Positions 1 to 49,983 of a stretch of 55,208 bases of DNA are shown piece by piece. The first letter of the stretch is position 1. Each line of letters begins with the position of its first letter. The stretch is from contig JAOUFI010000009.1 of the NCBI GenBank assembly GCA_029858305.1, positions 1-55,208 on the forward strand, in the 5' to 3' direction. The DNA is from Candidatus Thorarchaeota archaeon. GTDB lineage: Archaea > Asgardarchaeota > Thorarchaeia > Thorarchaeales > Thorarchaeaceae. The translations under genes and the position numbers were made by a program. Under the pieces are notes generated by a model. That model made no database searches and was not told where the DNA came from. It saw only the letters and a program-made list of their open reading frames with translations.

Positions 1-3000
1 TTATGACCATTACTCAACAGGCATTTCCACTTCACAAGTCCGAGTGGGTGTGTATGGATCAACTGGTTGGACCGTTGCTGGGAAATACCAAGTAGGCATG
101 CAATTCCCGCTTAATATTCCTCAAGGAGCGACTATATCATCAGCTCGTCTCGAAATAGAAGCATATGGTCGAATCGGGGGAGTGGTTGCTATCCGGATAT
201 ACGTAGCTCAAGAGGATAATGTCGCTCCGTTTACAAGTGGTTTACCACATCTTCAGGACAGATTTGACTGGAGCGGAGAAAGCATTGAATGGACATTGGA
301 TCCATGGAATCAAGATACACGTTATAGATCTCCAGACATTTCATCACTCGTTCAAGAAGTCATCTCGAGACCTGGATGGTCAAGCGGGAATTTCATTTGC
401 CTGATGCTTGACTACATGTATGGAAATGAATACCAAAATTATGTTCAAATAAAGGGTACTGCGAGCTATAATGGCGCAGATCTTGAGAGACTGTTTGTTG
501 ACTTTGGAGTGCCCAAGGTAGAAGATACTATCTCGGTTCTTCAATTCAGCAAGGACTTAGTTATTGACCATACAAAGGTAAATGCAGATCTTCAGGACTT
601 CCCGGTTCTCGTAGACATCTATGATAGGGATCTAAAAACTGATGCCCGATTCGATGGCGCAGACATCAGATTCATGAGCGGTACAGAAACGCTTTATCAT
701 GAAACAGAACTCTTTGAACCCAATTACAATTCGACTCATGCACACCTTAGAGCTTGGGTGAAAGTTCCTTCGTTATCTTCCTCAGTTGACACAGCGATTA
801 CAATGTCTTATGGTGCTCTTGATGCAAACAGTCAAGAAAATGCGGATCAGGTCTGGGATGATTACGAGAGCGTCTGGCATCTCTCAGAAAATACTGGTAG
901 TGGGATGTTCCTAGAAGATTCAAGCCAAAATGATCATGATGGTACTCCTGGTCAAACAACATTCATGTCAAGCGCACAGATAGGAGGCGCTAGGTATTTC
1001 CAAGACTTAGCAGGCAACTATATTCCTTTCATTGATGGCGAGAGTATATTTGATGGATGGACAGATTTTCAGTTCTCATTTTGGATTTATTTTGATTATT
1101 CAAGTGATTCTGAATGGACAGGTGTAGAACCCAGAGTCTTTGGTAAAGGTACAAGTATTGATCTGGTGAGAACATTCAGAGGACCTACAGGCTGGCCAGC
1201 TGGTTATGCTACGTTCCAGCCTGACATCCGTTTTAATACTGCAGGCACCAGTTACACGGGATTATATGTTAAACGGCAAGCTTGGAACTACATTGTGTAC
1301 AAGTATGAGAGCAGCGGAGATGGAGTATTACGCGCTTATAGTTTTGCAGATGGAGTACTAATAGATTCTGGTTCAGATACGGGAACGATAGTGGGTGACA
1401 GACTGCTTTATGACACAAATATGTTCACACTTGGCATTGATGGAGGGGGCCAGGTTCATCGTGGAGGAATAGATGAGTTTCGAACAATTAAAGGCTACAA
1501 GTCAGCCGCCTGGATACAGACCGAATATACAAACCAATACAATCCTTCGAGTTTCTACTCAGTAGGTGGGGAACAAGCAACCGAGTTCTCGAGCAATGCA
1601 GAGCTTCAGTTTTCTTCAACTGCTCAATCTATTGTCGAAATCTTGCCAAGACTAAAATTGAATGCAACATATCAAGGTTTAACACTCGATGAGAACTTTA
1701 AACCAGGAACATCATTCAGCGTGAGTAACGGCACTGACGCTACTTGGATTGCAAACGTATTGGTGAGTCCTCCACTAGGAGTGAGTCAACTCAATCTCAC
1801 ACTAGACAATCCCAGCACATGGACATTGACAAATGTCACAGATCCACTTGGTCGGAACCGACTCCTAGAAGTAACCACAACAGGCACGCAGACGATGGTA
1901 TCATCGTCAGTGCTAGATGTCTTGGGCATCTGGACATTCATATTCTCATCCACAAATGAAGCATTAGGGCTTGAGTGTGGTGCAAATGCTGAAGCATATG
2001 GCATTACGACATCACTTCAGACAGGAGACCTTGCGAAGTTCAGAGGCACAGCTTCAATAATTCCCGGTTCAGCAATGAGGCTCCATTTGATAGACCCAAG
2101 CGGGCAGCTCTACAATAGTTATGATGATATAACACAGGATGGAAGTGGGCAGTTCGAGTGGACTGGAATCAGTGTAACTTCCGCTTGGCCAAGTGGTCTC
2201 TGGCAGGCTCATGTTGACTTCAATGAGACAGCAGACTCGGCTCCAATCCGCGTTGGTAGGTACAGTAGATACTTCACAGTACAGCATGCCTCATCACTTC
2301 AGTTAGTATCCCCATCTGATGCGGTGGGAGATGGCGTGGCTGTCAGAACAGCAGGCGACCTTCTCACTGTGGAGGTACAGCTGACAGACACAGTCACAAC
2401 AGAGAACATTGTAGGTTCTACTGTCACAATGAATTGGACCGTTTTAGGCATAGAAACGATACTCCAACTAGAAGACTATGGAACAGGGATATATGGTAAG
2501 ACTGTGAATACGTCAGATCTAGGTCAGCCCGGAAACTGGAGAATTAATATCCAATCAAGCCACCCCAATCTAACTGATAGCATGACATATTTTGACTTGC
2601 AGCTATCACATCTGACAGTACTTACCTATTCAACTCCACCTTCGACACCATATGGTGACGATTTTTCAGTTCTTGTGACTCTCAAGGATGATATCACAGG
2701 TGCCAGATATTCTGGAGCTAGTTTCAATTCCAATGGGAGTATTGTTGGCGTTTCAGACTACAATAATGGAACATATCTCATTGAAATCGATTCTACTGGT
2801 CTGAGTATCGGTGTTTACGCTTTCCAAATTCAAGCAACTCCATCTCAGAACTTCGTCCTCGGCAGCTCGGTGCAAGTTGTCTTCAACTATAGGGAGATTG
2901 CTACAGATCTTGCTCAGATTGGCGTAAGTCCAGTTGGTGTTCCATGGGGACAGAATGCTAGCATATCGCTTGAGTGGCAGGACATTGATCATGGTGGTTC

Positions 3001-6000
3001 TGGTATTTCAGGAGGATTGCTCAGCGGTGATGGCACATTTGTGTACATTGACAACCTTGATGGTACATATGCTGTTGAGATTGATGTCGATTCATTTGAG
3101 ATTGGTGTGCACCTCTTTAATTTCACAATTACAGGTATTAATCACCAAACTGGACATATCACAATCACGGTAAGTGTGATACCACACAGAACATTGGTAG
3201 TAGCCTCATGTCCAAGCATAGTAGCCTTGGGTGCAAATGCATCCGTAACGCTCACATTAATGGATTTAGAACTTGGAAATACAATCATCAGTGGCAACCT
3301 CTCAAGTGTATTGGTGGAATGGAGCGGAGGGTCTTCGATTTATGGATCACTCCTATTCACGATTCATACACAGAATTGGACCATAGGTACCTATACGATA
3401 CACATTACAGTCCGCACAACAGGTTTTCCACGATATTACCACGATGCAGAAACAATCATAGTTTTGGACATTCGAAAATTGAGTGCTTCTCTCACATGGG
3501 ATAACTTAGATGTAATCCCAATTGGTGATGATTTTGAAGTAACTACTCATGTTACAGTGAACGATTCTACTTCAATATATCATGAAGCACCAGTGAACAA
3601 CCTTCTCCAGAGTCAATTCACAATTCGTGCTCAGAATGGGACAATCTACAGCATCAATTCATTCAGTTTTTCAGGTTCAGGAACATATGTCCTGACACTT
3701 AGCTATTCTCTCTTTACCAATGGCACATATGGAATAAGGATCTATTTGACATTTGGCTTGGCTGAAAACTACTCTGGCACTCAGACTCCACTCATCATCT
3801 TTGAATATGCTGCTGCCCGTAGTGACCTGAGCTCACCAGACTATCCTCTCATGACAATATCCTTCAGTACAAATGCCATAGTCACTATCGAGTTCATTGA
3901 TATCGACAGAGGAATTGGTATCGATACAGCAATCATCTACGTAATCGGTGCTGAAAAGCTGAGTCAACAGTTGATAAGCAGTGGAAGATATAGAGTGACT
4001 CTGAATACATCAACATGGACTATTGACTCTTATCTTGTGAACTTTACAGCATCTGCACTGAATTATGAAAACCAGACCATATCAATTAGCATCGAGATTA
4101 GACAGATACGAACATTCGCGACAGCAACTGTTAGTCTTCTCGACATTCCTGTTGGAGATAGTAAGTCGTTCTATGTTGATTATAGGGATATGGACCATGA
4201 TGTTCCTATAGTCACTCTAAATCATATCTGCAATTGGACACTGATTCACTACGATATTATCTGGACTGGTACACGTTATCAGGTCACGATTCGCACATTT
4301 GACTCAGACGCTCTAGGAACATATGTTTTGAGATTCAACTTCTCTGTAGGCGTGGAATATGAAAATGCGTCGTTTACAGTATCAGTCGTGATTCGAACAA
4401 TATCGACAGAACTGAGGTTTCTAGCTCCTGTTGAGGAAACTACATCCTCAAGCAATATTAGCATTTCAGTATATTATGGAGATCGAGATCATTCAACTGG
4501 AATAGTTTCGTCATTTGTGAGCTGCTCAATCTGGAATTCTACAGATCCATTACTATTCTTCTGGTTCAATGGTTCTGCCCCTGGTAACTATGAGATTAGG
4601 ATTGATGCTTCACAGTTCAATAGTCTAGGGGTTCAGCATCTTACAATCTATTTCATTTGGACTGGAAGTATCCAGAAATATCAAGATAAAGTTCTATCTG
4701 TTGATGTCGAGATAATTGGTGAAGACACTGAACTAACCCTTATCCAATCTGCTCAACCCTCCCCCTGTCTTGAATATATGGTCTATACGTTCCTCTACTC
4801 TCAGGCATCTACAGGCATGGGAATTATGAATGATACTGGAAATGTTCTCATTAGTGTCGATTTCACTGGATTGGCTATTGACCTCTCACAAGTTGATATT
4901 TGGGAAGTAAACAGAACTGGAAGTCCCGGACAATATTCTGTGGGATTCAACAACTCAATACTTGGACGCACAGGTCTTTTTGTCATGAATATATACATCA
5001 ACTGGTCTGAGGCTGTATTCCCATACTATACAGATAGAGTGGACTTGATTTCAGTCAGAGTTCTCCCAAGAAGTGCCCTCCTTACAATCATCCCTCCAAC
5101 TGGCGTTTCATATGGGGAGAATGTCACATTTTCATTCACATATGACGATACAACTGGAGGTTCATCGAATCCTGTTGTCTATAATCCCATTTCAATGATA
5201 ATCACATTGAACGTTCCTGACTTTTCATTTTACTACAATGCGATTGATAGGCTATACACTCTCTCATTCAACACGAGCCAACTTGGTGAACCTTTGGGAC
5301 TGAGAACAGTGATTCTTGATGTCACCTGGGCAGGTCTTCCGTTCTACACAAATGTGACAGGAAAAGTCATATCATTGACTCTAGCCGCCAGGCAGACATC
5401 ATTAACATATCCGACACCATCTAATACTCCATATGGAGACCTGGCTACCTTTACGATTGTCTTTCTTGATGTTGCTGGAGCTACACCTCAAGATGTGCAA
5501 GGAACGATAATAACAATCTACAATGGCGCGATTCAGATACCTGTCAGCTATCTCAATATTGTAGTGCAAGGATCGGGTCGTTATCGAATTGAGGTCAACA
5601 CATCATACTTCAACCAACCAGGCCAGTATGACCTCATGGTCAATGCTTCGTCTAATCAATTTTATTATCAATATAGGCAGTTAACAAGGATTCTAACAAT
5701 AAATCTTAGAGAAACTCTACTGACCGTCGAGCCCCCAAGAGAAACTCCCTATGGCACTCCACTCATTTTTGTTTTGCATTATCAGGATCTCAATACTCTC
5801 GATCCTATCGGAAACAGCACACAACTCATGACGATGGTGGAGATTCTTAATGGTAGCAGCTGGATATTCACATGCGTATGGCGACCTTCACTAGAGAACT
5901 ATCTTATTACGATCGAAACAAGCAATCAGATACTAGCAATAGGAAACTCCTATTTTCTATGGCTCAATTTCAGTACTGAGAGCAAGGCCCCATTCTATGA

Positions 6001-9000
6001 TTGGCAAGACATACTTGTATCATTCCAACTAAGTGAGAGAGATACGAGTATAGACCTAATTTCTGCGCCACTTCAGACTCGTTATCAAGACTACGCAAAC
6101 TTCACAATCCTCTACAAGGATATACTATCATCGTCTGGTATTTCTGGAGGCACAATCAACATTTTCTTTGGAGTAACTCTTCTACAACCATCAACAGACT
6201 ATTTGATCACATTGATTGGCTCAGGAACATACAGAATTAGTGTTGATACATCCTCGTTGGGTTCACCTGGAACAAAATCACTCACAATCACTGCGAACTG
6301 GACAGGAGGTGTTCCCTACTATGGTAATTGCCAGCGTACAGTCAATATTCAGGTCATCTGGCGTCCATCAAGTGTCGAAATCTTGGTTCCACCACAAGAC
6401 ACTTGGTTCCTCGAGAATGTAACCTTCGACTTTGTGTTTACGGACTTGGCAACCGGCGAGGGAGTGATGGTTACTATGGGCGCTGTGAGCATTTTTAATA
6501 ACGGAGTATTACTCACAACTGCCCAATATACGATTACCCCTATAGGACTTCTATTTAGAGTCAGTATGAACTCTACAATAATCAACGCGAATCTGGTCAA
6601 TAAATGGAACGTATCAGTTCTTGTCACATGGCCAGGAGGAGCACCCTATTACAAGGATGATTCCACTACAGTATATGTCACTACTATTGGTAGAGTTGGG
6701 AATGTCGATCTACAGCAAATTAATGATACAGCCTTTGGAGACATCATGAATCTTACTCTAATCTACACAGATCAGAAATCCGGAGTTCCAATTGAAGGAG
6801 CCTCGATCCTTCTTGACTGTATTGAATCACCAGGTCTGGTAGAAGGAAATGATTACTGGATACAAGTTGGTTCAGGATTTGAATCAGGTACATACAGAAT
6901 CTTGGTTAATACATCATCATTAGGGAGTCTTGAATTATTCACATTTGAGATTGATATCATATGGAACTCATCACAGGCACCATACTACAGGAGTATCACA
7001 GGCCTACTGGCCAAAGGAGTTGTAAGAGAAATTCAGACCTCACTATCCAGTGATATTCCAACGCCTTCGGTGGTTGCATTCTATGAGTTAATCTCGTTCA
7101 TCATCGAGTTCACTGACATTGATCATGGATTGGCCATTAATGGAGCGGAAGGATTCATCACAGTAAAGTACTCTACAGGTCTAGAACCATCCTATTGGTC
7201 AGTATATGCAATCGGTGCAGGACAATATAACATCACTTTGAACATGACTGATTCACTGACAACTGGTCTCCAGACGCTTATCATATCAATTAACATGTCT
7301 CCCTATCAGGAAGCTGAAACACAAGCAGTGTTTGGATTGAGTACTAGAATAGCGGGCTTATCTGCCAATCTGGCGCCTACTAACTATGCGGGATATTTGG
7401 TATATGTCACAATTTTTCTATCAGACTCTGACGCAGATGATGCACCTCTAACTGGTGCATCTCTGAGTTTGACTTGGGCAGATTTGCACACTTATGTTGA
7501 CCTTGGTGATGGACGTTATAACATCACACTCTACACATCCAATCTCAACTTCGGGTCTCATCTACTGACTGTACAAGGCAATTTGACTCATTACACTATT
7601 AATCCCCTTAATGTTAAAATCAATCTCCTTGCTGTTCCATCAGAGCTTATTGTGTCATGGATGGGACCAAGGGGCGACAGAGAGATATTCTGGGGTGAAA
7701 CCCTAACCATCTATGCATCAATCAATGATACTCTTAGAAATCAAACAGTTTCCACAGCCTTCATAATTTTTGATTGGGATGGTGGTACTGGATCATTCTC
7801 ACCAACTGCGATGATAGGCAACTACTCTGCTTTTCTGGATACTAGTCTAGTAAGTGTGGCTGATACAATAGTAATCAGAATCGAAGGATCATCGCCTAAT
7901 TACATCAATGCATCATATTTACTGATCTTCAGACTATTGCCCCGGCTCATGGAAGTCATACCTGAAAATAATCAATATGTCTACTCAGTAGCTTGGGGAG
8001 GCATAATAGACATCATTGTATATTTAGAAGATCCACTTGATGGAAGTAAAATCACTGATGCAACTCTCATAGCAGGCTGGGATTATGCTAGTGGGCTCAG
8101 TCTTGTTGAGGTACCTGGGAGACCTGGATTTTATCAGGTGACTCTATCAGCTGGATCGGCAGGCTTTGGCAGCTATGAAATCCAAATAGACGCTAGCAAA
8201 GAAAACTATGGAAGTTCTTCAGCGATTCTAATCCTTTCAATAGCTGAGATTCGAATGGTCATGTGGCTTGACAATAATACCGTCACCTATGAGTACACAC
8301 CAGTCTACTGGTCACAGATTGTAAGGATTGGTGTCTATGTTGTTGCTCCCGCTCTGAACCCATCAGATCCACTGTCAACTGGACTCACAAATCTATTAGT
8401 GACTTGGTACTCTCCGGAACTAGGTCGGAATGGTACACTTGCTAATGGGACACTAATAGGAGGCCCAGGATACTATTATTACGACTTCAATACTAGTGAA
8501 GGCATTGCGTCGGTGCACACGTTCAAGATTAGGGCATTACCTCCGACTACGGATTATACAGATGCTGAGAATTCCACATCTATTTTAGTTAGGAACTTGG
8601 TGGCGACGATTATTTCTCCAGGTTCGCCTGAATTCTCTTGGGGATGGTCAGGTTTCATTAACTTCACCTATTATGATTCATTCCACGATGTGGGGATTCA
8701 AGCTGATGATGCTTCATATTCATGGGCTGGTGGAAATGGAAAAGCTATCTATCTTGGTGTAGGGCAATACGGAATACCAATCGACACCTCTATTTTAAGA
8801 CCTGGTACATACACAATCACCCTAGTCTGTCAAAGGGCAAACTACAATGATGTACGAATCATCTTTAGGATTCATATTGCTCCAGTGCAAACAGAAGTTT
8901 TACTCAATATTTCAGATGTATATCGAATCAGTGGTAGCTCAACAAATCTGAGGGTGCCCTATGGGGACATTTTGAACATCAGTCTAGTATACAACAACGT

Positions 9001-10861
9001 TTTGTTTGCTAGTGGAATTCCATACGCCAACTTCAACAACAGCTACTTCTCGGGTCCAGGTTTCTTTGAGCAACCTCTCATACTAATAGACTTGGGAAAT
9101 GGAAGTTACTCGTTCTTCTTTACCACAATTCCATGGGATCTTGAGAACATATTCTCATTCCACATTCAATTCATGCGTGAGAACCATACTACTGGTACAC
9201 TCAACTTTGAGATTACAATTATTGAGATACCAACTATAGTCAATTTGGATGGACCTTCAATAATCTCATTGAACTGGGGAATGAACACAACATTTTGGAT
9301 ATCATATTTGGATGCTTGGCCAGGTCACTTTGGTGAAGGAGTCGAGGATGCATTAGTACTTGTAAACAACGATTCACCACTATTCGCTTTGATTGAGTAT
9401 CTCGGACCAGACTCTGAAAGACCCGGATGGTACCAATTCAGAATCATTGCATCACGGGCATCTGGAGTAGCAGGAGTGAATATAACGTTCTACAAGACCT
9501 ACTACGTTACTCAATCAGTGATGCTATCAGTTTCTGTAAGTCCATCTGCAGAGGATATTGCCCTTCAAAATGCAATGACCTATGGAGGAGCATTCATCAT
9601 TGTCATGATTATTGGTGCAGTCGTATGGATTCGAATCCTCAGAGTTCCAAAGATAATTCGACGTATCAGCAGTCAAATCAGAGTGATACGCAGGGGCAAA
9701 ATACCTAAACCTGCAAAAGGTGTCCAGAGCCGTAGAGCATTGGTCACATCTATCTTCAACGACATCTATGCAACAACTGGAATTAAGAGAAAAGTTGCTG
9801 ACATTCCATCAGAGCCTATCATTGTTGAGGTTCCTGAGGTAGAAGAACTAGTAATTGATCTTTCAATTCTTACAGGAATGACCCAAGAAGAACTCAATGA
9901 TTTCAAGTTCGAGATATCCAAGATGAAAATGAGCCAGCAAACCAGCTTTGTAAGAGAAGTAATTGCGCAAGAACTGACAAGAGTTGCTACACTTCAAGGC
10001 AAATCTATTGAACAGGTGCTTCAAGAAGTCGTGGCAGAAAGAAAGAAGCGAATTGGTGGCGAGGGAACACCCACGAAGATAGAAGACTATATCCCCACTG
10101 AAGAAGCACCAGCCGTGGTGGAGCCGCCAACTGAGGGAATTGAATTTGAAGACCGTCTGCGAGAATTTGAACTCGAAGAGATGACAATTGAACTGGAAAA
10201 ACGTGGTATTCCTAAGCATGAAATTGAGTCATTCATCGCTCAATCAAGAGAGCTTCCCAAGGATGTGGTCCAAATGCTCCTTCAAAGCTTCCAGCCTCGA
10301 ATGAAAGCTGTGCCGACTGAGGACAAAATCGAACATATGACAGAGGCTGAGATTGAAGATTTGAGGACCGAGCTAGCTAGGAGAAAGGTCAGTGAGCGTG
10401 AGATTGATTCAATTATAGACCAGGCACGAAAACTTCCAAAGGAACTTGCACTTGAGCTCTATAAGGAAGAGGATGAATCGGGCAAGAAGAAACGGAAACA
10501 GAAAGTCGAGACACTTTCCGGAGCAGAATTCTATGCCTTGCGAGATGAATTGATGAACAAAGGAGTCCCTGAACAAGAGATTGAAGCAATTATGGAAACT
10601 GCAAAGACGGCTCCAAAGAAGGTGGTCATGGAATATCTCAAGTCGATTGACAAGATGCCGCAACCCGAAACCGAAGAGGTTGAATTCGAGGATACGCTTG
10701 GAGAGCTAGAGATTGAAGAACTACGCGAACAGCTTGAAAAGAGAAATCTTCCACCCGACGAGATTAAGGCAATCCTAAAGCAGGCGAAGGGTCTGCCCAG
10801 TGCCTTAGTCGAAGACCTGCTTAGAAGCATAGATGCAGACAGGGAGGAAAGGAAGGAGTAG
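1..10861 (+). CDS. Giant single-pass cell-surface protein (DUF2341-like + LamG-like domains, many Ig-like repeats, C-terminal TM helix, repeated cytoplasmic tail); 5'-truncated
   Basis: The frame is open from base 2 (YDHYSTGISTSQVR..), so the true start lies upstream of the window. LQDFPVLV..DIRF..WVKVP is DUF2341-like; VWHLSE..GGIDEFR..WIQTEY is LamG-like. Recurrent GxYxIx(D/N)TSxL beta repeats, abundant N-x-S/T sequons, and a TM helix YGGAFIIVMIIGAVVWI at ~9581-9635. Confidence 0.85.
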   Translation, partial: YDHYSTGISTSQVRVGVYGSTGWTVAGKYQVGMQFPLNIPQGATISSARLEIEAYGRIGGVVAIRIYVAQEDNVAPFTSGLPHLQDRFDWSGESIEWTLDPWNQDTRYRSPDISSLVQEVISRPGWSSGNFICLMLDYMYGNEYQNYVQIKGTASYNGADLERLFVDFGVPKVEDTISVLQFSKDLVIDHTKVNADLQDFPVLVDIYDRDLKTDARFDGADIRFMSGTETLYHETELFEPNYNSTHAHLRAWVKVPSLSSSVDTAITMSYGALDANSQENADQVWDDYESVWHLSENTGSGMFLEDSSQNDHDGTPGQTTFMSSAQIGGARYFQDLAGNYIPFIDGESIFDGWTDFQFSFWIYFDYSSDSEWTGVEPRVFGKGTSIDLVRTFRGPTGWPAGYATFQPDIRFNTAGTSYTGLYVKRQAWNYIVYKYESSGDGVLRAYSFADGVLIDSGSDTGTIVGDRLLYDTNMFTLGIDGGGQVHRGGIDEFRTIKGYKSAAWIQTEYTNQYNPSSFYSVGGEQATEFSSNAELQFSSTAQSIVEILPRLKLNATYQGLTLDENFKPGTSFSVSNGTDATWIANVLVSPPLGVSQLNLTLDNPSTWTLTNVTDPLGRNRLLEVTTTGTQTMVSSSVLDVLGIWTFIFSSTNEALGLECGANAEAYGITTSLQTGDLAKFRGTASIIPGSAMRLHLIDPSGQLYNSYDDITQDGSGQFEWTGISVTSAWPSGLWQAHVDFNETADSAPIRVGRYSRYFTVQHASSLQLVSPSDAVGDGVAVRTAGDLLTVEVQLTDTVTTENIVGSTVTMNWTVLGIETILQLEDYGTGIYGKTVNTSDLGQPGNWRINIQSSHPNLTDSMTYFDLQLSHLTVLTYSTPPSTPYGDDFSVLVTLKDDITGARYSGASFNSNGSIVGVSDYNNGTYLIEIDSTGLSIGVYAFQIQATPSQNFVLGSSVQVVFNYREIATDLAQIGVSPVGVPWGQNASISLEWQDIDHGGSGISGGLLSGDGTFVYIDNLDGTYAVEIDVDSFEIGVHLFNFTITGINHQTGHITITVSVIPHRTLVVASCPSIVALGANASVTLTLMDLELGNTIISGNLSSVLVEWSGGSSIYGSLLFTIHTQNWTIGTYTIHITVRTTGFPRYYHDAETIIVLDIRKLSASLTWDNLDVIPIGDDFEVTTHVTVNDSTSIYHEAPVNNLLQSQFTIRAQNGTIYSINSFSFSGSGTYVLTLSYSLFTNGTYGIRIYLTFGLAENYSGTQTPLIIFEYAAARSDLSSPDYPLMTISFSTNAIVTIEFIDIDRGIGIDTAIIYVIGAEKLSQQLISSGRYRVTLNTSTWTIDSYLVNFTASALNYENQTISISIEIRQIRTFATATVSLLDIPVGDSKSFYVDYRDMDHDVPIVTLNHICNWTLIHYDIIWTGTRYQVTIRTFDSDALGTYVLRFNFSVGVEYENASFTVSVVIRTISTELRFLAPVEETTSSSNISISVYYGDRDHSTGIVSSFVSCSIWNSTDPLLFFWFNGSAPGNYEIRIDASQFNSLGVQHLTIYFIWTGSIQKYQDKVLSVDVEIIGEDTELTLIQSAQPSPCLEYMVYTFLYSQASTGMGIMNDTGNVLISVDFTGLAIDLSQVDIWEVNRTGSPGQYSVGFNNSILGRTGLFVMNIYINWSEAVFPYYTDRVDLISVRVLPRSALLTIIPPTGVSYGENVTFSFTYDDTTGGSSNPVVYNPISMIITLNVPDFSFYYNAIDRLYTLSFNTSQLGEPLGLRTVILDVTWAGLPFYTNVTGKVISLTLAARQTSLTYPTPSNTPYGDLATFTIVFLDVAGATPQDVQGTIITIYNGAIQIPVSYLNIVVQGSGRYRIEVNTSYFNQPGQYDLMVNASSNQFYYQYRQLTRILTINLRETLLTVEPPRETPYGTPLIFVLHYQDLNTLDPIGNSTQLMTMVEILNGSSWIFTCVWRPSLENYLITIETSNQILAIGNSYFLWLNFSTESKAPFYDWQDILVSFQLSERDTSIDLISAPLQTRYQDYANFTILYKDILSSSGISGGTINIFFGVTLLQPSTDYLITLIGSGTYRISVDTSSLGSPGTKSLTITANWTGGVPYYGNCQRTVNIQVIWRPSSVEILVPPQDTWFLENVTFDFVFTDLATGEGVMVTMGAVSIFNNGVLLTTAQYTITPIGLLFRVSMNSTIINANLVNKWNVSVLVTWPGGAPYYKDDSTTVYVTTIGRVGNVDLQQINDTAFGDIMNLTLIYTDQKSGVPIEGASILLDCIESPGLVEGNDYWIQVGSGFESGTYRILVNTSSLGSLELFTFEIDIIWNSSQAPYYRSITGLLAKGVVREIQTSLSSDIPTPSVVAFYELISFIIEFTDIDHGLAINGAEGFITVKYSTGLEPSYWSVYAIGAGQYNITLNMTDSLTTGLQTLIISINMSPYQEAETQAVFGLSTRIAGLSANLAPTNYAGYLVYVTIFLSDSDADDAPLTGASLSLTWADLHTYVDLGDGRYNITLYTSNLNFGSHLLTVQGNLTHYTINPLNVKINLLAVPSELIVSWMGPRGDREIFWGETLTIYASINDTLRNQTVSTAFIIFDWDGGTGSFSPTAMIGNYSAFLDTSLVSVADTIVIRIEGSSPNYINASYLLIFRLLPRLMEVIPENNQYVYSVAWGGIIDIIVYLEDPLDGSKITDATLIAGWDYASGLSLVEVPGRPGFYQVTLSAGSAGFGSYEIQIDASKENYGSSSAILILSIAEIRMVMWLDNNTVTYEYTPVYWSQIVRIGVYVVAPALNPSDPLSTGLTNLLVTWYSPELGRNGTLANGTLIGGPGYYYYDFNTSEGIASVHTFKIRALPPTTDYTDAENSTSILVRNLVATIISPGSPEFSWGWSGFINFTYYDSFHDVGIQADDASYSWAGGNGKAIYLGVGQYGIPIDTSILRPGTYTITLVCQRANYNDVRIIFRIHIAPVQTEVLLNISDVYRISGSSTNLRVPYGDILNISLVYNNVLFASGIPYANFNNSYFSGPGFFEQPLILIDLGNGSYSFFFTTIPWDLENIFSFHIQFMRENHTTGTLNFEITIIEIPTIVNLDGPSIISLNWGMNTTFWISYLDAWPGHFGEGVEDALVLVNNDSPLFALIEYLGPDSERPGWYQFRIIASRASGVAGVNITFYKTYYVTQSVMLSVSVSPSAEDIALQNAMTYGGAFIIVMIIGAVVWIRILRVPKIIRRISSQIRVIRRGKIPKPAKGVQSRRALVTSIFNDIYATTGIKRKVADIPSEPIIVEVPEVEELVIDLSILTGMTQEELNDFKFEISKMKMSQQTSFVREVIAQELTRVATLQGKSIEQVLQEVVAERKKRIGGEGTPTKIEDYIPTEEAPAVVEPPTEGIEFEDRLREFELEEMTIELEKRGIPKHEIESFIAQSRELPKDVVQMLLQSFQPRMKAVPTEDKIEHMTEAEIEDLRTELARRKVSEREIDSIIDQARKLPKELALELYKEEDESGKKKRKQKVETLSGAEFYALRDELMNKGVPEQEIEAIMETAKTAPKKVVMEYLKSIDKMPQPETEEVEFEDTLGELEIEELREQLEKRNLPPDEIKAILKQAKGLPSALVEDLLRSIDADREERKE

Positions 10862-45910: not shown

Positions 45911-45988
45911 TGGCGGGACCGCCCGGATTTGAACCGGGGATAACCAACTCCGCAGGCTGGTGCCTTATCCAGGCTAGACTACGGCCCC
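45911..45988 (-). tRNA. tRNA-Arg(GCG), CCA encoded
   Basis: Reverse complement GGGGCCGTAGTCTAGCCTGGATAAGGCACCAGCCT-GCG-GAGTTGGTTATCCCCGGTTCAAATCCGGGCGGTCCCGCCA; all stems pair. Confidence 0.93.
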
Positions 45989-46028
45989 ATTTTACGAGGG
46001 GCTGGATTTGACTCATAAAGTCTTCGTT
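45989..46028 (-). promoter_or_regulatory. tRNA upstream module P (BRE/TATA-like AACGAAGACTTTATG), repeated at ~47194-47233, ~48217-48256 and degenerately at ~46744-46790
   Basis: TTTATG lies ~26 bp upstream of the mature tRNA 5' end; near-identical copies precede the pseudo-tRNAs. Confidence 0.7.
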
Positions 46029-46125
46029 ACGATAATTGATAGTATATTCCAATTCTGAATTCTGAAATTATTAATTCTCATTTTCTGTTTCAGATTGCAC
46101 TTTCTCCATTTTCCCTTCCGAAGTA

Positions 46126-46719
46126 CTAGACGTTCTGTTTCTTGCTATGGTTTTTTGCTAAAACCTCTTGTGCAGCTGTTCCAATCCAATCACTTCTCTC
46201 AGCTATTTTCTCAATAGCTTCTTGATAGTAATGATGTTCACTGTCTTCTATCCGCTCATTATACTTCAAAAGGAACTGCTTGAATCCATCATAAGAACGG
46301 TTCCATACTCGTGCTCTGAAAATCCAAACACTTGCTAATCGATCTGAGTACGGAGGAAATACCCATAGGAAAGCTGGGTGTCTGTACATACCAGCAATAA
46401 CGACTACGAGTGTCACTATTAGAAACAGCCACTCTCCAATTGATATCATCAAATAAGGGAAAATAACGTCTTGAGTGATGCCAACTCCGAGTCCAAGGCG
46501 GAACCCACTCATGTAACTCTTGGCAATCCAATACATCATTGAAACGAGTAAGACATATAGAACAAGGGTTCGTTTTAAGCCATTAAATAACTTTGAACCA
46601 AGTCTTTGAATCACAAGAGGACCTCTTTTCCATGTGAAAGCATAGTTTAAAGAGGGTAACACAAGAACTGTGATACATCCAACTAATGTCCAGAGCACGA
46701 CATCCATCCATTCTACCAC
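46126..46719 (-). CDS. Membrane protein of unknown function (in the tRNA-repeat array)
   Basis: 3 TM segments plus a soluble C-terminus. Confidence 0.7.
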   Translation of the reverse strand: MVEWMDVVLWTLVGCITVLVLPSLNYAFTWKRGPLVIQRLGSKLFNGLKRTLVLYVLLVSMMYWIAKSYMSGFRLGLGVGITQDVIFPYLMISIGEWLFLIVTLVVVIAGMYRHPAFLWVFPPYSDRLASVWIFRARVWNRSYDGFKQFLLKYNERIEDSEHHYYQEAIEKIAERSDWIGTAAQEVLAKNHSKKQNV

Positions 46720-46829
46720 CTATAAAGCAGTGACTAAGCCCCCATTAATAGAAGGGCGAGATTTAGCACATAAAGTCTTTGTCGTGAATTTAATTAGTTG
46801 ATTCAGATCGGTGTATGAACTTGTAGAAC

Positions 46830-47036
46830 TCAAACAAGAGGCAGCTTCATCATTGTAACTACAGCTCGTCCTCTTCGCTTCGTCACTCTGAGTGTGTGCT
46901 CAGAAGTCTGCAGTATAAAGTCTTCTCCTTCCTCCAAGTTTTCGAGAACTGTTCTCCCCATAGGGCCATTCAGATATTTGGTGAAACGTGCCACTACTTT
47001 TTCTTCATTTGTGACATGGTTGCCAACAATACTCAT
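46830..47036 (-). CDS. Small soluble hypothetical protein
   Basis: GAGGT RBS and a TTTATA box ~40 bp upstream; globular alpha/beta-like composition. Confidence 0.7.
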   Translation of the reverse strand: MSIVGNHVTNEEKVVARFTKYLNGPMGRTVLENLEEGEDFILQTSEHTLRVTKRRGRAVVTMMKLPLV

Positions 47037-47115
47037 TTTTGAAACCTCACGTCATAATTCAATATCAGAATGAGGCATATAAAGTCCGACTGACTGTAGA
47101 AATGAGAAGAAAAAG

Positions 47116-47193
47116 TGGCCGTACCGCCCGGATTTGAACCAGGGATAACCAACTCCGCAGGCTGGTGCCTTATCCAGGCTAGACTACGGCCCC
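47116..47193 (-). pseudogene. tRNA-Arg(GCG) pseudocopy with acceptor-stem mismatches
   Basis: Differs from 45911..45988 at 3 positions: acceptor 3' strand CGGTACG (G1:G and G3:A mismatches) and one T-stem C>T that gives a U-G pair. Confidence 0.8.
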
Positions 47194-47539
47194 ATTTTAC
47201 GAGGGGCCGGATTTAACTCATAAAGTCTTCGTTGTGAAAAGACAATAGAAGGATTATAGGGCCGTGAGTATCATTCAAAGTGAAGTTGGAGTCCTACTGC
47301 AGTACAATCTGCTCTTTTTATCACACAGGGTTTACCTCCAAATATCTAAAAATTAAACATTCGCCATCTTCTGGATAATCGAGCACCACATTATCCAACG
47401 AACCGATGAAACAGCTTGTACGTCCACTCATAATGTTGTTTACAGATGAGTCTAGTTCATAATAAATGACTCAGATGATCGATTTCCAATCCGATGTTGT
47501 TGGAAAAGAGAATCTCTTCATAGTCAGATTTCGTTCTGT

Positions 47540-47911
47540 TTATGGGCTTGACGATGACTTGCTTGGAAAAGCATTGGGTATTACAAACCTAAGCATTAGC
47601 AGCAAACATGCAAGAGCAGAGAAACCCAATTCACCAGTAACAATTTGAAGCCAGATGGCAATTGCCGATACACCGAGAGTCCAAAGAATATATCGTACTA
47701 AGTTCCAAAAAAAAGTGTGTTCATAGTAAGATTCGCAGTACCAAATGATTATTGAAGAGGGCACTTTTTCCTCATTCAAGGCACGTACATGAACCTTCAT
47801 CATATAAAGCAGTACTTCAGATAACAGGAGAAGGAAAACACCGACTACTGGAAGACCCAGAATTGTCGCTAGATCATCCATAGCCGGTATTTGAATCACT
47901 AATACATTCAC
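47540..47911 (-). CDS. Small membrane protein (in the tRNA-repeat array)
   Basis: 3 TM segments; lies directly downstream of repeat module A. Confidence 0.65.
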   Translation of the reverse strand: MNVLVIQIPAMDDLATILGLPVVGVFLLLLSEVLLYMMKVHVRALNEEKVPSSIIIWYCESYYEHTFFWNLVRYILWTLGVSAIAIWLQIVTGELGFSALACLLLMLRFVIPNAFPSKSSSSP

Positions 47912-48138
47912 TCCTCATCTCAACTACCCTTCCTCCGGCACACGACAACTGAATCTCAGTTGGTCCCCTGTACTGAATACACTTGCCTCGGTTAATAAAC
48001 TTGTCATTTTTTGTATTTGCACAAAATTGTATCCAATCTCCACTACATTCAAGGGTGGTATCCTGCAAACAAATAACTAATTCGAGGTAGATATCACTAG
48101 CTACCTCTTTGCTTTGAGCACAAGTCTATAAGAAATAA
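47911..48138. repeat. Module A copy 1 (~230-bp non-coding direct repeat of ~49681-49905)
   Basis: Shared blocks CACGACAACTGAATCTCAGTTGGT, TTAATAAACTTGT, ATTTGCACAAAATT, ACTAATTCGAGGTAGATATCACTA, ATAAGAAATAA. Confidence 0.9.
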
Positions 48139-48216
48139 TGGCGGGACCGCCCGGATTTGAACCGGGGACACCCAACTTGTTACGCTCGCGCCTTATCCAG
48201 GCTAGACTACGTCCCC
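48139..48216 (-). pseudogene. tRNA-Arg-derived pseudo-tRNA with a scrambled anticodon arm
   Basis: D arm, T arm and CCA end retained; the anticodon arm reads CGAGC-GTAACAA-GTTGG and the acceptor has an A5:G mismatch. Confidence 0.8.
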
Positions 48217-48289
48217 ATTTTTCATGGGGCTAATTTTGACTAATAGAGTCTTCGTTGTGAATTATCAAATAGAAATAATTGTTTGTAAT

Positions 48290-48616
48290 TCACTGCTTCG
48301 TTTCTTCATGCATTAAGCTAGAGTTTTTCTTTCGTTTCACATAGTAGAATGTGGCTACACAAGAGCCGAAGATAAAAAAGACAGATGGTATGATAAAGAA
48401 GGCAGTGAAGGATACAACTGATGGTACCTTTGTACAATAATCGGGTAATAGTAAGTTTATAGTTAAGAAAGCCAATGATCCAATCCAAAAGCCAGATCCA
48501 CTAAGAACTTTACTATCGTGTCCTAGTTTGATTTCTCTTCTTCTTATAAGGAATTCTGAAACGAACGATGCAAATGCTGGTATGGTGAGTATCACCATGA
48601 TTTCTTGTATTAGCAA
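48290..48616 (-). CDS. Small membrane protein (in the tRNA-repeat array)
   Basis: GGAGGTGA RBS before TTG; 3 TM segments; basic C-terminal tail. Confidence 0.7.
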   Translation of the reverse strand: MLIQEIMVILTIPAFASFVSEFLIRRREIKLGHDSKVLSGSGFWIGSLAFLTINLLLPDYCTKVPSVVSFTAFFIIPSVFFIFGSCVATFYYVKRKKNSSLMHEETKQ

Positions 48617-48663
48617 TCACCTCCACAGTTTGTTCTGTCTATAGATTCACCTCGTATTCAAAA

Positions 48664-48870
48664 TTATTGTTCTTCCAAGCTCTGTTGGAAAACGCATTGA
48701 GCAACATGAAAAACCCATGCCAAGGCAAATAATTTGAACAACACGTAGAGAGGAAGTCCAATGAATAACCTATCAAATGCTGCAGCTCCACTCAGTCCTT
48801 GGTACACAGAGGTGATGAAGCTTCCTACGAGGAAAAGAACTGCTGATAAAAGAAGCATTATACCTGTCAT
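48664..48870 (-). pseudogene. Probable 5'-truncated membrane-protein remnant
   Basis: 2 TM segments; its ATG is at the edge of repeat module B, only a few bp from the TATA-like box. Confidence 0.4.
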
Positions 48871-48933
48871 GAGTCATATAAAGTCCGATTGACTGTATGA
48901 TTGACGAGAATGAGTGGCGGGACCGCCCGGATT
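48869..48933 (-). repeat. tRNA-Arg 3'-end fragment (48915-48933) plus module B (copy of ~47070-47115)
   Basis: TGGCGGGACCGCCCGGATT matches the last 19 nt of both intact tRNAs; CATATAAAGTCCGA(C/T)TGACTGTA is shared with 47076-47098. Confidence 0.85.
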
Positions 48934-49217
48934 CTCATCAGGTTGAAGAATGACGAAGAGGAGTGTTGGACAATAACTCTAATCAAATGTCTTAAAGATG
49001 TCAGGTTGTTTTCCGTCAAATCTCATTCATGGACGTACCCAACACTCCATGAATGGGTACGTGGCAGATGAGCCTTGTTCATTTAGAGAACTCATGAGAT
49101 TAACCTCATTCTCATCTCTTCTACTCTAATTGGATCTATAAGGTTCAATAAATCAGGTTTATTTCATTGATATTCATCTATTCATTTCAATCTACAACAG
49201 TACATTATTGTGCTCGT

Positions 49218-49610
49218 TCATGGAGTGATAGAACTGTCTGAATTAGTAGAACATGATAATTCTTCTAACTGTCGGGATATTAATGAACCAATTATCATCA
49301 TTGAAAAATGCAGAACTAGTACTGCAAATACAAATGGAGGCCAACTGGAGTACAATATCGGGTTCGAATACCAGATCACACTCCACACTATACAGAGTGA
49401 AATAGGAAGAAGAAAAATCAAAACCTGGTATTCAGTTGAATGCTCACTTACTATAATTTTGTAAGCTGAATTATCATACCAAGTTTGGGGGGAGAAAGGG
49501 CTTTCTATCCTATCCAACTTTAGGCGTAACTTCACTCTTTGAATGGCAACATTGACTAGTATTAAGAGGGAAGATAAAATTATAAAGATGATAAATAAGA
49601 GTTCCTCCAT
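49218..49610 (-). CDS. Small membrane protein (in the tRNA-repeat array)
   Basis: 3 TM segments; downstream of module A copy 2; weak similarity to 47540..47911. Confidence 0.65.
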   Translation of the reverse strand: MEELLFIIFIILSSLLILVNVAIQRVKLRLKLDRIESPFSPQTWYDNSAYKIIVSEHSTEYQVLIFLLPISLCIVWSVIWYSNPILYSSWPPFVFAVLVLHFSMMIIGSLISRQLEELSCSTNSDSSITP

Positions 49611-49680
49611 TTCTCGCCCGTTCCTAAAATCACAATACTTAGTGTTTCAATGCATACAATTCTTTTCCTGGATATAGTTA

Positions 49681-49905
49681 CCTCACTCAACAACGCTTCC
49701 TCCGTCGCACGACAACTGAATCTCAGTTGGTTCCCTGTACTGAACAGACCGACTCTATTTAATAAACTTGTGATTTTTTTGCATTTGCACAAAATTACAT
49801 CCAATCCCCACTATATCCAAGGCGGCATATTGCAAATCAATGACTAATTCGAGGTAGATATCACTAACTGCCTCTCTGCTTTGAGTACAAGTCCATAAGA
49901 AATAA
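49681..49905. repeat. Module A copy 2
   Basis: Colinear with 47911-48138 and abutting the CCA end of tRNA-Arg(CCG). Confidence 0.9.
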
Positions 49906-49983
49906 TGGCGGGACCGCCCGGATTTGAACCGGGGAATACCAACTCCGGAGGCTGGCGCCTTATCCAGGCTAGACTACGGCCCC
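49906..49983 (-). tRNA. tRNA-Arg(CCG), CCA encoded
   Basis: Reverse complement GGGGCCGTAGTCTAGCCTGGATAAGGCGCCAGCCT-CCG-GAGTTGGTATTCCCCGGTTCAAATCCGGGCGGTCCCGCCA; all stems pair. Confidence 0.93.

Follow-up and report, generated by a model that had tools for sequence, protein, structure and literature searches.

tRNA genes are textbook integration sites, and the enzyme responsible is normally visible. Elements that lack an integrase include the cis-mobilizable elements (CIMEs), which are flanked by attachment (att) sites and tied to a cognate integrative element at the same site. Unequal crossing-over or loop-out between tandem paralogs leaves hybrid junction genes and duplicates or deletes the intervening DNA. 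Here we describe a tRNA-Arg locus in a 55,208-nt stretch of Candidatus Thorarchaeota archaeon DNA (contig JAOUFI010000009.1 of assembly GCA_029858305.1), the whole of which is called the window; between positions 45911 and 49983, two intact tRNA-Arg genes enclose an array of small genes, tRNA remnants and promoter copies. The array is a compact, integrase-less variant of foreign-DNA accumulation at tRNA genes, and a keyword-level literature search found no description of such an array in Thorarchaeota. With a probability of roughly 0.55, we read the locus as a tRNA-anchored accretion islet, formed by mixed recombination at tRNA and promoter copies; at least four modules of 0.75–1.8 kb have been added between its two tRNAs.

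The closest described system is the growth of islands at tRNA genes, as in the tycheposon islands of Prochlorococcus, where integration recurs at a tRNA, partial tRNAs separate the stacked elements and leftover cargo accumulates (bioRxiv 10.1101/2020.12.28.424599). As outlined in that account, those islands share with the present array a fixed tRNA landing site, stacked modules, integrase-less cargo and differences between close strains. In the same outline, tycheposons carry tRNA-specific tyrosine recombinases and ~40-nt 3' repeats, whereas no such enzyme was found here and the units are 0.75–1.8 kb long with one or two small genes. The repeats here, unlike those outlined for tycheposon islands, include full-length tRNAs with their promoter as well as pieces that combine the promoter with the start of the tRNA; two near-identical, mutually recombining isoacceptors bracket the islet, and some insertions lie 5' of the tRNA. 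Asgard elements integrated at tRNA genes have been described as HeimV1 and the aloposons of Heimdallarchaeum (PMC8813620). In what that source reports of them, these share with our locus an Asgard host, insertion beside a tRNA and a cargo in which surface or giant proteins abound (see also the tRNA-Gly inserts below), but they span tens of kb and have an integrase or a conserved gene set, in contrast to ~1-kb units without a mobility gene.

Like CIMEs, the inserts are bounded by att-type repeats, lack recombination and transfer genes and stand in tandem at a tRNA site; unlike the situation with CIMEs, a cognate element was not found, the 12 integrase loci considered covering 1.4–3.8 kb each. 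The array is integron-like in outcome: one site holds a varying series of small units, most of them with a single gene, and the platform provides the promoters. The array is no integron: IntI-type integrase, attI/attC hairpins and a common Pc promoter are absent, and it is tRNA and promoter copies that recombine. Unequal crossing-over would leave hybrid junction genes like those seen here (T2 and T3, below) but cannot alone bring in unrelated cargo. As in tRNA-targeting elements, a direct repeat of the tRNA 3' part accompanies an intact tRNA and the site is empty in relatives or strains; no integrase lies inside the element.

Architecture of the array

The genome of the window (G000) is a metagenome bin of 3.04 Mb in 205 contigs (43% G+C, 89% complete). 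G007 is its closest relative and other G numbers are same-genus genomes; L numbers are individual fetched loci, including metagenome loci, and X1, X2 and X3 are public sequencing runs. ARAGORN and Rfam identified four full-length tRNA-like units, and all tRNA-derived elements of the array lie on the minus strand. The features, in minus-strand order, are as follows (ORF, open reading frame; dN/dS, ratio of nonsynonymous to synonymous divergence; BRE, transcription factor B recognition element).

49906..49983, minus strand: T1, intact tRNA-Arg(CCG), 52.6 bits; distal anchor beside a conserved 228-aa gene
48934..49905, minus strand: E1, composed of B1 (49686–49905), g130 (49218–49610) and spacer x (48934–49217); bounded by a 19-nt direct repeat
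49218..49610, minus strand: g130, cargo gene in E1, with weak relatives in G003 islands
48871..48933, minus strand: f3+A2, a 19-nt copy of the tRNA 3' end (48915–48933) and then a copy of promoter A, from sequence reading and nhmmer
48664..48870, minus strand: g68m, small two-helix membrane ORF beginning right after promoter copy A2
48290..48616, minus strand: g108, membrane-protein cargo gene; dN/dS 0.25 against G023
48139..48263, minus strand: T3, pseudo-tRNA with promoter copy P3 (ARAGORN, Rfam); anticodon arm destroyed
47919..48138, minus strand: B2, copy of module B directly after a tRNA 3' end, from the repeat families; its fold is not special
47540..47911, minus strand: g123, membrane-protein cargo gene; dN/dS 0.25 against G007
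47241..47539, minus strand: y, non-coding spacer of the g123 module, part of a block 91.5% identical to G007
47116..47240, minus strand: T2, pseudo-tRNA with promoter copy P2 (ARAGORN, Rfam); GCG-type body with a mutated 3' acceptor strand
47070..47115, minus strand: A1, predicted w68c promoter module, which in relatives sits after tRNA-Arg(CCG)
46830..47036, minus strand: w68c, conserved resident gene for a 68-aa soluble protein, present in 26/28 genus genomes
46732..46800, minus strand: P1'+f5, a former promoter, now decayed, with the tRNA's first ~12 nt; immediately precedes g197
46126..46719, minus strand: g197, membrane-protein cargo gene; dN/dS 0.22 against G002; true start probably the ATG at 46707
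45989..46035, minus strand: P0, predicted promoter module (BRE/TATA type) of tRNA-Arg(GCG); the alignment shows it conserved across the genus
45911..45988, minus strand: T0, intact tRNA-Arg(GCG), 54.7 bits; proximal anchor beside the M24 peptidase gene, in the same position in all genus loci examined

Read along the minus strand, the array runs from the 228-aa gene through T1(CCG), B1, g130, x, f3+A2, g68m, g108 and P3+T3, continues with B2, g123, y, P2+T2, A1, w68c and P1'+f5, and closes with g197, z and P0+T0(GCG) before the peptidase gene. Each junction between unrelated DNA is a tRNA or promoter copy. An earlier note on this DNA had described five co-oriented tRNA-Arg sequences, three recurring flanking modules (P, A and B), six short genes of which five encode membrane proteins, and a window free of integrases and transposases. 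These observations were borne out, the four full-length units and the 19-nt piece accounting for the five tRNA sequences, except that the tRNA inventory was incomplete: a sixth piece, at 46732–46800, had been missed. Module P comprises ~47 nt upstream of T0, T2 and T3, with a degenerate copy at P1'. The copies of module A (47070–47115 and 48871–48914) are 80% alike, and those of module B (49686–49905 and 47919–48138) are 86–89% alike. The body of T2 (47116–47193) has a GCG anticodon, mismatches at acceptor pairs 1-72 and 3-70 and a score of 37.7 bits; that of T3 (48139–48216) was called "Val AAC" with 34.4 bits. The sequences suggest that only the two outermost tRNAs stay functional and the inner copies decay.

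The boundaries of the modules are precise. E1 (972 nt) is flanked by a perfect 19-nt repeat (49906–49924 and 48915–48933) that spans the T-loop to CCA, and similarity ends abruptly beyond it; behind the displaced copy comes A2, which originally flanked the CCG tRNA on its downstream side. A direct repeat of ~300 bp consists of T1+B1 and T3+B2, 1,767 bp apart. P3+T3 and P2+T2 lie 1,023 bp apart, P2+T2 and P0+T0 lie 1,205 bp apart and are 94% alike, and P1'+f5 and P0+T0 lie 755 bp apart and are only 70% alike. Two of the units are hybrids: a GCG-type promoter precedes both T3 and T2, and they are followed by B and by the CCG-type flank A, respectively. Their composition indicates recombination between the GCG and CCG isoacceptors.

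Modules P, A and B do not occur elsewhere in the 3.04-Mb genome, and Rfam found no family other than tRNA at 40–55.2 kb of the window. No recurring inverted repeat was found at the unit ends, nor any attC-like hairpin. Module B was considered as a structured RNA and rejected, since it folds no better than shuffled sequences (z -0.1 and -1.6). Spacer y contains a 36-aa ORF (47320–47430, minus strand) that is also open in G007, with six amino-acid differences.

Ancestral form and variation among relatives

Loci of same-genus genomes were fetched by anchoring on the neighboring M24 peptidase gene. The start-to-start spacing of the CCG and GCG tRNAs is 425–451 nt in 16 of the 20 relatives with both on one contig, the exceptions being G012 (509 nt), G002 (896 nt), G010 (948 nt) and G023 (1,230 nt); the distance in the window is 3,995 nt. 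The ancestral order reconstructed from these loci is 228-aa gene, tRNA-Arg(CCG), promoter A, w68c, promoter P, tRNA-Arg(GCG) and peptidase gene, with the two tRNAs, ~90% alike, forming direct repeats ~440 nt apart. The w68c ortholog is the sole gene between the tRNAs in relatives of ancestral form. Its presence in 26/28 genus genomes, a mean column identity of 73% over 21 orthologs and a dN/dS of 0.05–0.12 therefore mark w68c as a resident gene and not a cassette. In the genus alignment, P is a conserved region with a TATA-like motif 27–32 nt before tRNA-Arg(GCG), and A is a conserved TATA-like block 20–30 nt after tRNA-Arg(CCG), in front of w68c; by position and conservation, P is the putative promoter of tRNA-Arg(GCG) and A that of w68c.

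An AlphaFold model of w68c (predicted local distance difference test score, pLDDT, 86.9) contains two helices and a three-stranded sheet; a Foldseek search against the PDB returned nothing below E 0.28. The possibility that w68c is an excisionase-like protein was considered and found no support. In one G007 locus (L081; G007:C131:950-2443, minus strand), a w68c domain forms the C-terminal end of a 497-aa leucine-rich-repeat (LRR) protein, and the tRNA-Glu insert of G000 carries a related LRR gene as its only cargo.

The locus of G007, whose peptidase is 89% identical to that of G000, is spread over two contigs and reads CCG, B, a large ORF (at least 427 aa on contig C206 and 543 aa on C100), g123 and y, followed by P2+T2, A1, w68c, P and GCG. 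It lacks g197 and the entire stretch from g130 to T3, and T2 is present and decayed there as well. G007 is the only relative that carries B, and B1 is orthologous to the B of G007:C206 (88%). P1' of the window is the ortholog of G007's working promoter; g197 therefore came with a fresh promoter and tRNA 5' end.

Three species (G000, G023 and G002) share a 5'-side architecture, in which the old promoter and the first 12–25 nt of the tRNA are followed by cargo and then by an intact promoter and tRNA-GCG. The cargo in these three (g197, g115 and a 118-aa ORF, respectively) is unrelated, and the duplication end points vary (tRNA position 12, 20 or 25). The g108-P3-T3 block of the window matches g115-P-GCG of G023 at 70%, g115 being a 59% homolog of g108. 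The G023 locus contains a w68c paralog and g115, G010 has two w68c paralogs, and the 118-aa ORF of G002 is a membrane ORF. The scan covered 15 further genus loci, 14 of them with both tRNAs and one truncated by the end of its contig; additional tRNA-Arg units or remnants were detected in none of these.

A metagenome scan with the w68c alignment yielded 61 loci, 50 of which contain tRNA-Arg units by nhmmer, with a maximum of two per locus. Expansions in these loci are tandem w68c paralogs (L087/L097, L093, L094, L096 and L133). In L085, two small membrane ORFs precede w68c and a CCG tRNA is missing within 746 nt, and in L089 the CCG tRNA is reduced to its 3' half, behind an unrelated 147-aa ORF. 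In L118 (5138–5424), both tRNA-Arg genes are adjacent and inverted relative to w68c; in this rearranged locus a hexapeptide-repeat protein gene, normally located beyond the peptidase, lies directly upstream. Seven loci (L108, L110, L114, L116, L122, L130 and L131) have tRNA-Arg units that are 30–60 nt longer and are misread or missed by ARAGORN; these overlong units may contain introns.

Cargo genes

Six co-oriented ORFs lie between the units, five of them with two or three hydrophobic stretches in a Kyte-Doolittle scan. The dN/dS values of 0.22–0.25 identify the cargo as real genes under purifying selection. The cargo is rare: the g108 family occurs in 2/28 genus genomes (G000 and G023), at the tRNA-Arg locus in both, g123 in 2/28 (G000 and G007), and g197 in 3/87 genomes of the order but not in the closest relative, G007. 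The g197 homologs of G002 (72%) and G003 (64%) both lie away from tRNA-Arg, and neither has a tRNA or a P module in its vicinity; that of G003 belongs to a co-oriented run of small membrane ORFs beside toxin-antitoxin-like genes, and one ORF of this run is a weak relative of g130. No homolog of g68m was found in G000 or in the tRNA-Arg loci compared, to which the search was limited. Neither Pfam nor PHROGs gave a family at a useful level for g197, g123, g108, g68m or g130, and the same holds for the large ORFs of G007 and the inserts of L085, L089 and G002. A viral origin was also considered and rejected; IMG/VR yielded neither relatives of g197 or g130 nor an exact match to the B motif.

Divergence within the cargo differs from that of its surroundings. 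The g123-w68c block is 91.5% identical to G007 with a synonymous divergence (dS) of 0.18–0.24, compared with 84% and dS 0.84 for the adjacent peptidase gene, and g197 shows dS 0.75 against G002, where the peptidase is saturated (proportion of synonymous differences, pS, 0.77). The cargo and the w68c block, being less diverged than the core, have therefore moved between species more recently than the species split. Identity is mosaic, with B1 and B2 86–89% alike and the genes behind them ~25% alike or unrelated. Cargo genes stand directly behind duplicated promoters (P1' before g197, A2 before g68m, and B before g130 and g123), an arrangement suggesting that the P, A and B copies drive cargo expression.

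Strain variants

Strain comparison used assembled contigs of public runs only. In X3, from an independent study, a 306-nt contig joins position 47115 to 48139 (shorter side 152 nt) and reads g108-P3-T3-A1-w68c, so that exactly the 1,023-bp unit B2-g123-y-P2-T2 is missing; the joint falls within the last 6 nt of the tRNA, and g123 is present on other X3 contigs. Run X1 is probably from the source sample; one of its contigs, a minor one with a depth of 4.1 where the main form has 8.7–13.1, passes from the end of w68c through 35 other letters into a promoter-tRNA unit, which corresponds to a form without g197. X1 unitigs cover every inter-tRNA segment at a rough word depth of 8.7–13.1, with flanks at 11.4–13. 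Contigs of X2 gave no cover over 47361–48870, which is not used as evidence of absence. Two X2 joints (47197/49906 and 49985/50065) were rejected because they have short sides or unknown letters between; they are probably from other organisms' tRNAs.

Recombinase searches and other tRNA genes

Pfam detected no integrase or transposase family in the 31 window ORFs of at least 140 aa or in the six small ORFs. The G000 genome has no match to PF00589 (tyrosine recombinase) or PF16795 (archaeal SSV-type). PF00589 matched all 14 control genomes and gave no match in 20/28 genus genomes, G007 and several that are 90–97% complete among them; since the search works on all controls, even a XerA-type enzyme is not detected in those 20 genomes. 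The remaining 8/28 have tyrosine recombinases, mostly on short contigs. These were rejected as the engine of the array, their 12 loci (1.4–3.8 kb each examined) being without tRNA, tRNA-Arg-like or B-like sequence.

The footprint of the array recurs elsewhere in G000. ARAGORN identified 24 tRNAs and, besides the Arg pair, four are followed downstream by a co-oriented copy of their own 3' end.

C113:8309-9943: tRNA-Glu(UUC), 37-nt exact repeat; 1.5-kb insert filled by one LRR-protein gene
C119:45406-46064: tRNA-Ala(UGC), 24-nt repeat; 0.58-kb insert
C188:15238-18828: tRNA-Gly(UCC), ~27-nt repeat; 3.5-kb insert with two secreted-protein genes
C204:2894-4214: tRNA-Leu(GAG), a tandem pair of inserts (0.67 and 0.56 kb)

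All of these repeats (24–37 nt) begin in the T-arm and end at CCA, and the inserts are integrase-less. The tRNA-Glu site is empty in 5/5 relatives searched, and the tRNA-Gly site is empty in three relatives and occupied by a different, 7-kb insert in two. Inserts at different tRNAs have no common head or tail motif, except for B between E1 and E2. The 7-kb tRNA-Gly insert of G001 and G013 (L184, G001:C27:6800-14700) encodes a 557-aa TnpB/Cas12f-like ORF and a 1,701-aa ORF without a family match, and no integrase. A further tRNA-Arg gene of G000, tRNA-Arg(TCG) at C5:12308-12385, has an inverted 43-nt partial copy 3.8 kb off (C5:16168-16210), which is 95% identical to the Arg tRNA query.

Proposed mechanism and alternative explanations

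The most probable course of events, in our reading, is that host homologous recombination at tRNA and promoter copies joined the modules, possibly helped by a trans-acting site-specific recombinase for the short 3'-end repeats. The directly repeated isoacceptors would recombine and loop out the intervening DNA, giving a circle that carries one hybrid tRNA; if this circle then underwent a single crossover with a tRNA-Arg copy of a related chromosome, its content would be added and the tRNA duplicated together with its flanks. At least four modules would have been inserted between the two tRNAs. The first would be E1 (B1-g130-x, 972 nt), inserted at the T-loop-to-3'-end segment of the CCG tRNA. 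The second would be the 1,767-bp unit (tRNA-B-g130-x-f3-A2-g68m-g108-P), bounded by the ~300-bp tRNA+B repeats and best read as a CCG x GCG loop-out circle of a related locus, re-inserted by a single crossover. The third would be the 1,023-bp unit (B2-g123-y-P2-T2), which is polymorphic between strains, and the fourth g197 with its fresh promoter and tRNA 5' end, which would have left the old promoter and ~12 nt as a remnant. Loop-out and re-insertion would explain the hybrid units as well as the 1,767-bp unit and its ~300-bp repeats; they would also explain the X3 form as the 1,767-bp unit in a locus without the g123 unit. For the 5'-side insertions of the three species, incoming DNA would pair with the tRNA and promoter at one end and join illegitimately inside the 5' part of the tRNA at the other. 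After each event, one intact copy per isoacceptor would be kept, here the outermost. The T-loop-to-CCA repeats of E1 and of the other tRNAs resemble classical attachment sites and may need a site-specific enzyme.

Several points weigh against this account. The order of events is not uniquely reconstructible, and several steps need gene replacement or conversion; P2-T2 is 94% like P0-T0 in G000 but diverged in G007. Repeat lengths of 19, ~57, ~127 and ~300 nt mean that one mechanism may not explain all junctions, and the 19-nt repeat, short for homologous recombination, suggests a site-specific enzyme that has escaped detection. Such an enzyme was not found in G000 or G007, and the 12 integrase loci of the genus hold no tRNA-Arg or B sequence; the bin, however, is 89% complete in 205 contigs, and integrase-bearing mobile elements may be unbinned. 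No circle junction, the expected recombination intermediate, was present among the assembled contigs of the runs, and the promoter role of P, A and B is based on motif position.

A possible but rather unlikely alternative is that the array is a decayed stack of ordinary tRNA-targeting integrative elements, whose integrases were deleted or which are cargo-only satellites moved in trans, in the manner of CIMEs or tycheposon remnants. The abruptly ending 19-nt repeat of E1, the T-arm-to-CCA repeats at four other tRNAs (two sites checked and empty in relatives), the position of the X3 joint, the tyrosine recombinases of 8/28 genus genomes and the reported tRNA-site integration in Asgard archaea (PMC8813620) fit it. 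It is at odds with the absence of PF00589 and PF16795 matches in G000 and of PF00589/PF16795 matches in G007, and with the lack of any integrase remnant among the ORFs or in Pfam and PHROGs scans of the cargo. Between its exact repeats the tRNA-Glu insert holds just one gene, so that a lost integrase would have had little space; and the full-length tRNA-plus-promoter copies, the 300-bp tRNA+B repeats and the variable 5' end points are unlike the products of one fixed crossover site.

A broader proposal strikes us as speculative and improbable. It holds that Thorarchaeota exchange gene cassettes without an integrase, or with a recombinase of an unrecognized family: stable-RNA genes (in this case tRNAs together with their promoters) would serve as universal attachment sites for ~1-kb single-gene circles, paired tRNA-Arg genes would excise and capture them, and duplicated promoters of tRNAs or neighboring genes would express them, as an integron analogue made from housekeeping parts.

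The earlier note had gone further than the observations of its inventory, proposing that near-identical tRNA isoacceptors act as recombination anchors and portable promoters for a variable, integron-like array of cassettes. Much of this agrees with the comparative data: the number and content of units between conserved flanks vary among relatives, the module boundaries are all tRNA or promoter copies with hybrid units among them, and duplicated promoter modules stand directly in front of cargo genes. The cassette description does not extend to the resident w68c (46830–47036), and an integron-like mechanism found no support. A dedicated platform, with a specific recombinase capturing promoter-less single-gene circles for expression from platform promoters, would suit the small single-gene units (0.75–1.0 kb), their variable content between conserved flanks, the tRNA-3'-end+B junction common to two units and the promoter copies in front of cargo. 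We nevertheless regard it as very unlikely, because no integrase, IntI-type or other, was found beside the array or in the G000 genome, attC-like inverted repeats are lacking (with B folding like shuffled sequence), inserts at other tRNAs have no common head or tail motif, relatives of the cargo occur in ordinary islands that lack tRNA pieces, expansions elsewhere mostly consist of plain tandem w68c copies, and none of ~70 other related loci has a multi-unit array.

Equally improbable for the array as a whole is an origin without foreign DNA, in which unequal crossing-over between the two tRNAs simply duplicated segments in tandem and the copies then diverged. Hybrid tRNA units with their flanks are what a GCG x CCG exchange should give, and tandem w68c copies are the commonest expansion in relatives. 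The units, however, are homologous only in tRNA, P, A and B, with genes that are unrelated or ~25% alike; most genus members lack g197, g108 and g123; and in G002 and G003 g197 is found elsewhere, its synonymous divergence below that of the core gene. Tandem duplication is contradicted for the cargo and could still hold for single steps. It is hardly credible, finally, that an assembler chained strain alleles sharing tRNA repeats in series: the source is a metagenome bin, strain variants exist and each tRNA copy interrupts the independent unitigs of the likely source run, but inter-tRNA depths in X1 match the flanks and are not fractions summing to flank depth, the copy-specific variants of T2 and T3 are connected to unique DNA within unitigs, the independent G007 assembly has g123-y-P2-T2-A1-w68c-P-T0 and CCG-B, and the X3 contig puts g108 and w68c on one molecule, all of which argues against a chimera.

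The locus, like four other tRNAs of G000, presents very small, cargo-only units with clean tRNA-derived boundaries that come and go between close relatives. If host recombination, or a recombinase not yet known, acts on such units, accretion at tRNA genes would offer Asgard archaea an inexpensive way to exchange genes for surface and membrane proteins, and gene exchange in the Asgard lineage is of interest with regard to eukaryote origins. Paired, directly repeated isoacceptors provide a simple, testable model for a cassette array without a dedicated platform.

Other genes of the window

Core genes elsewhere in the window encode a family B DNA polymerase, HerA/Mre11/Rad50-type proteins, an archaeosine tRNA-guanine transglycosylase and triosephosphate isomerase. 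The interval 44–10858 (plus strand) is a single open frame of 3,605 aa, a giant protein gene whose only match is to DUF2341.

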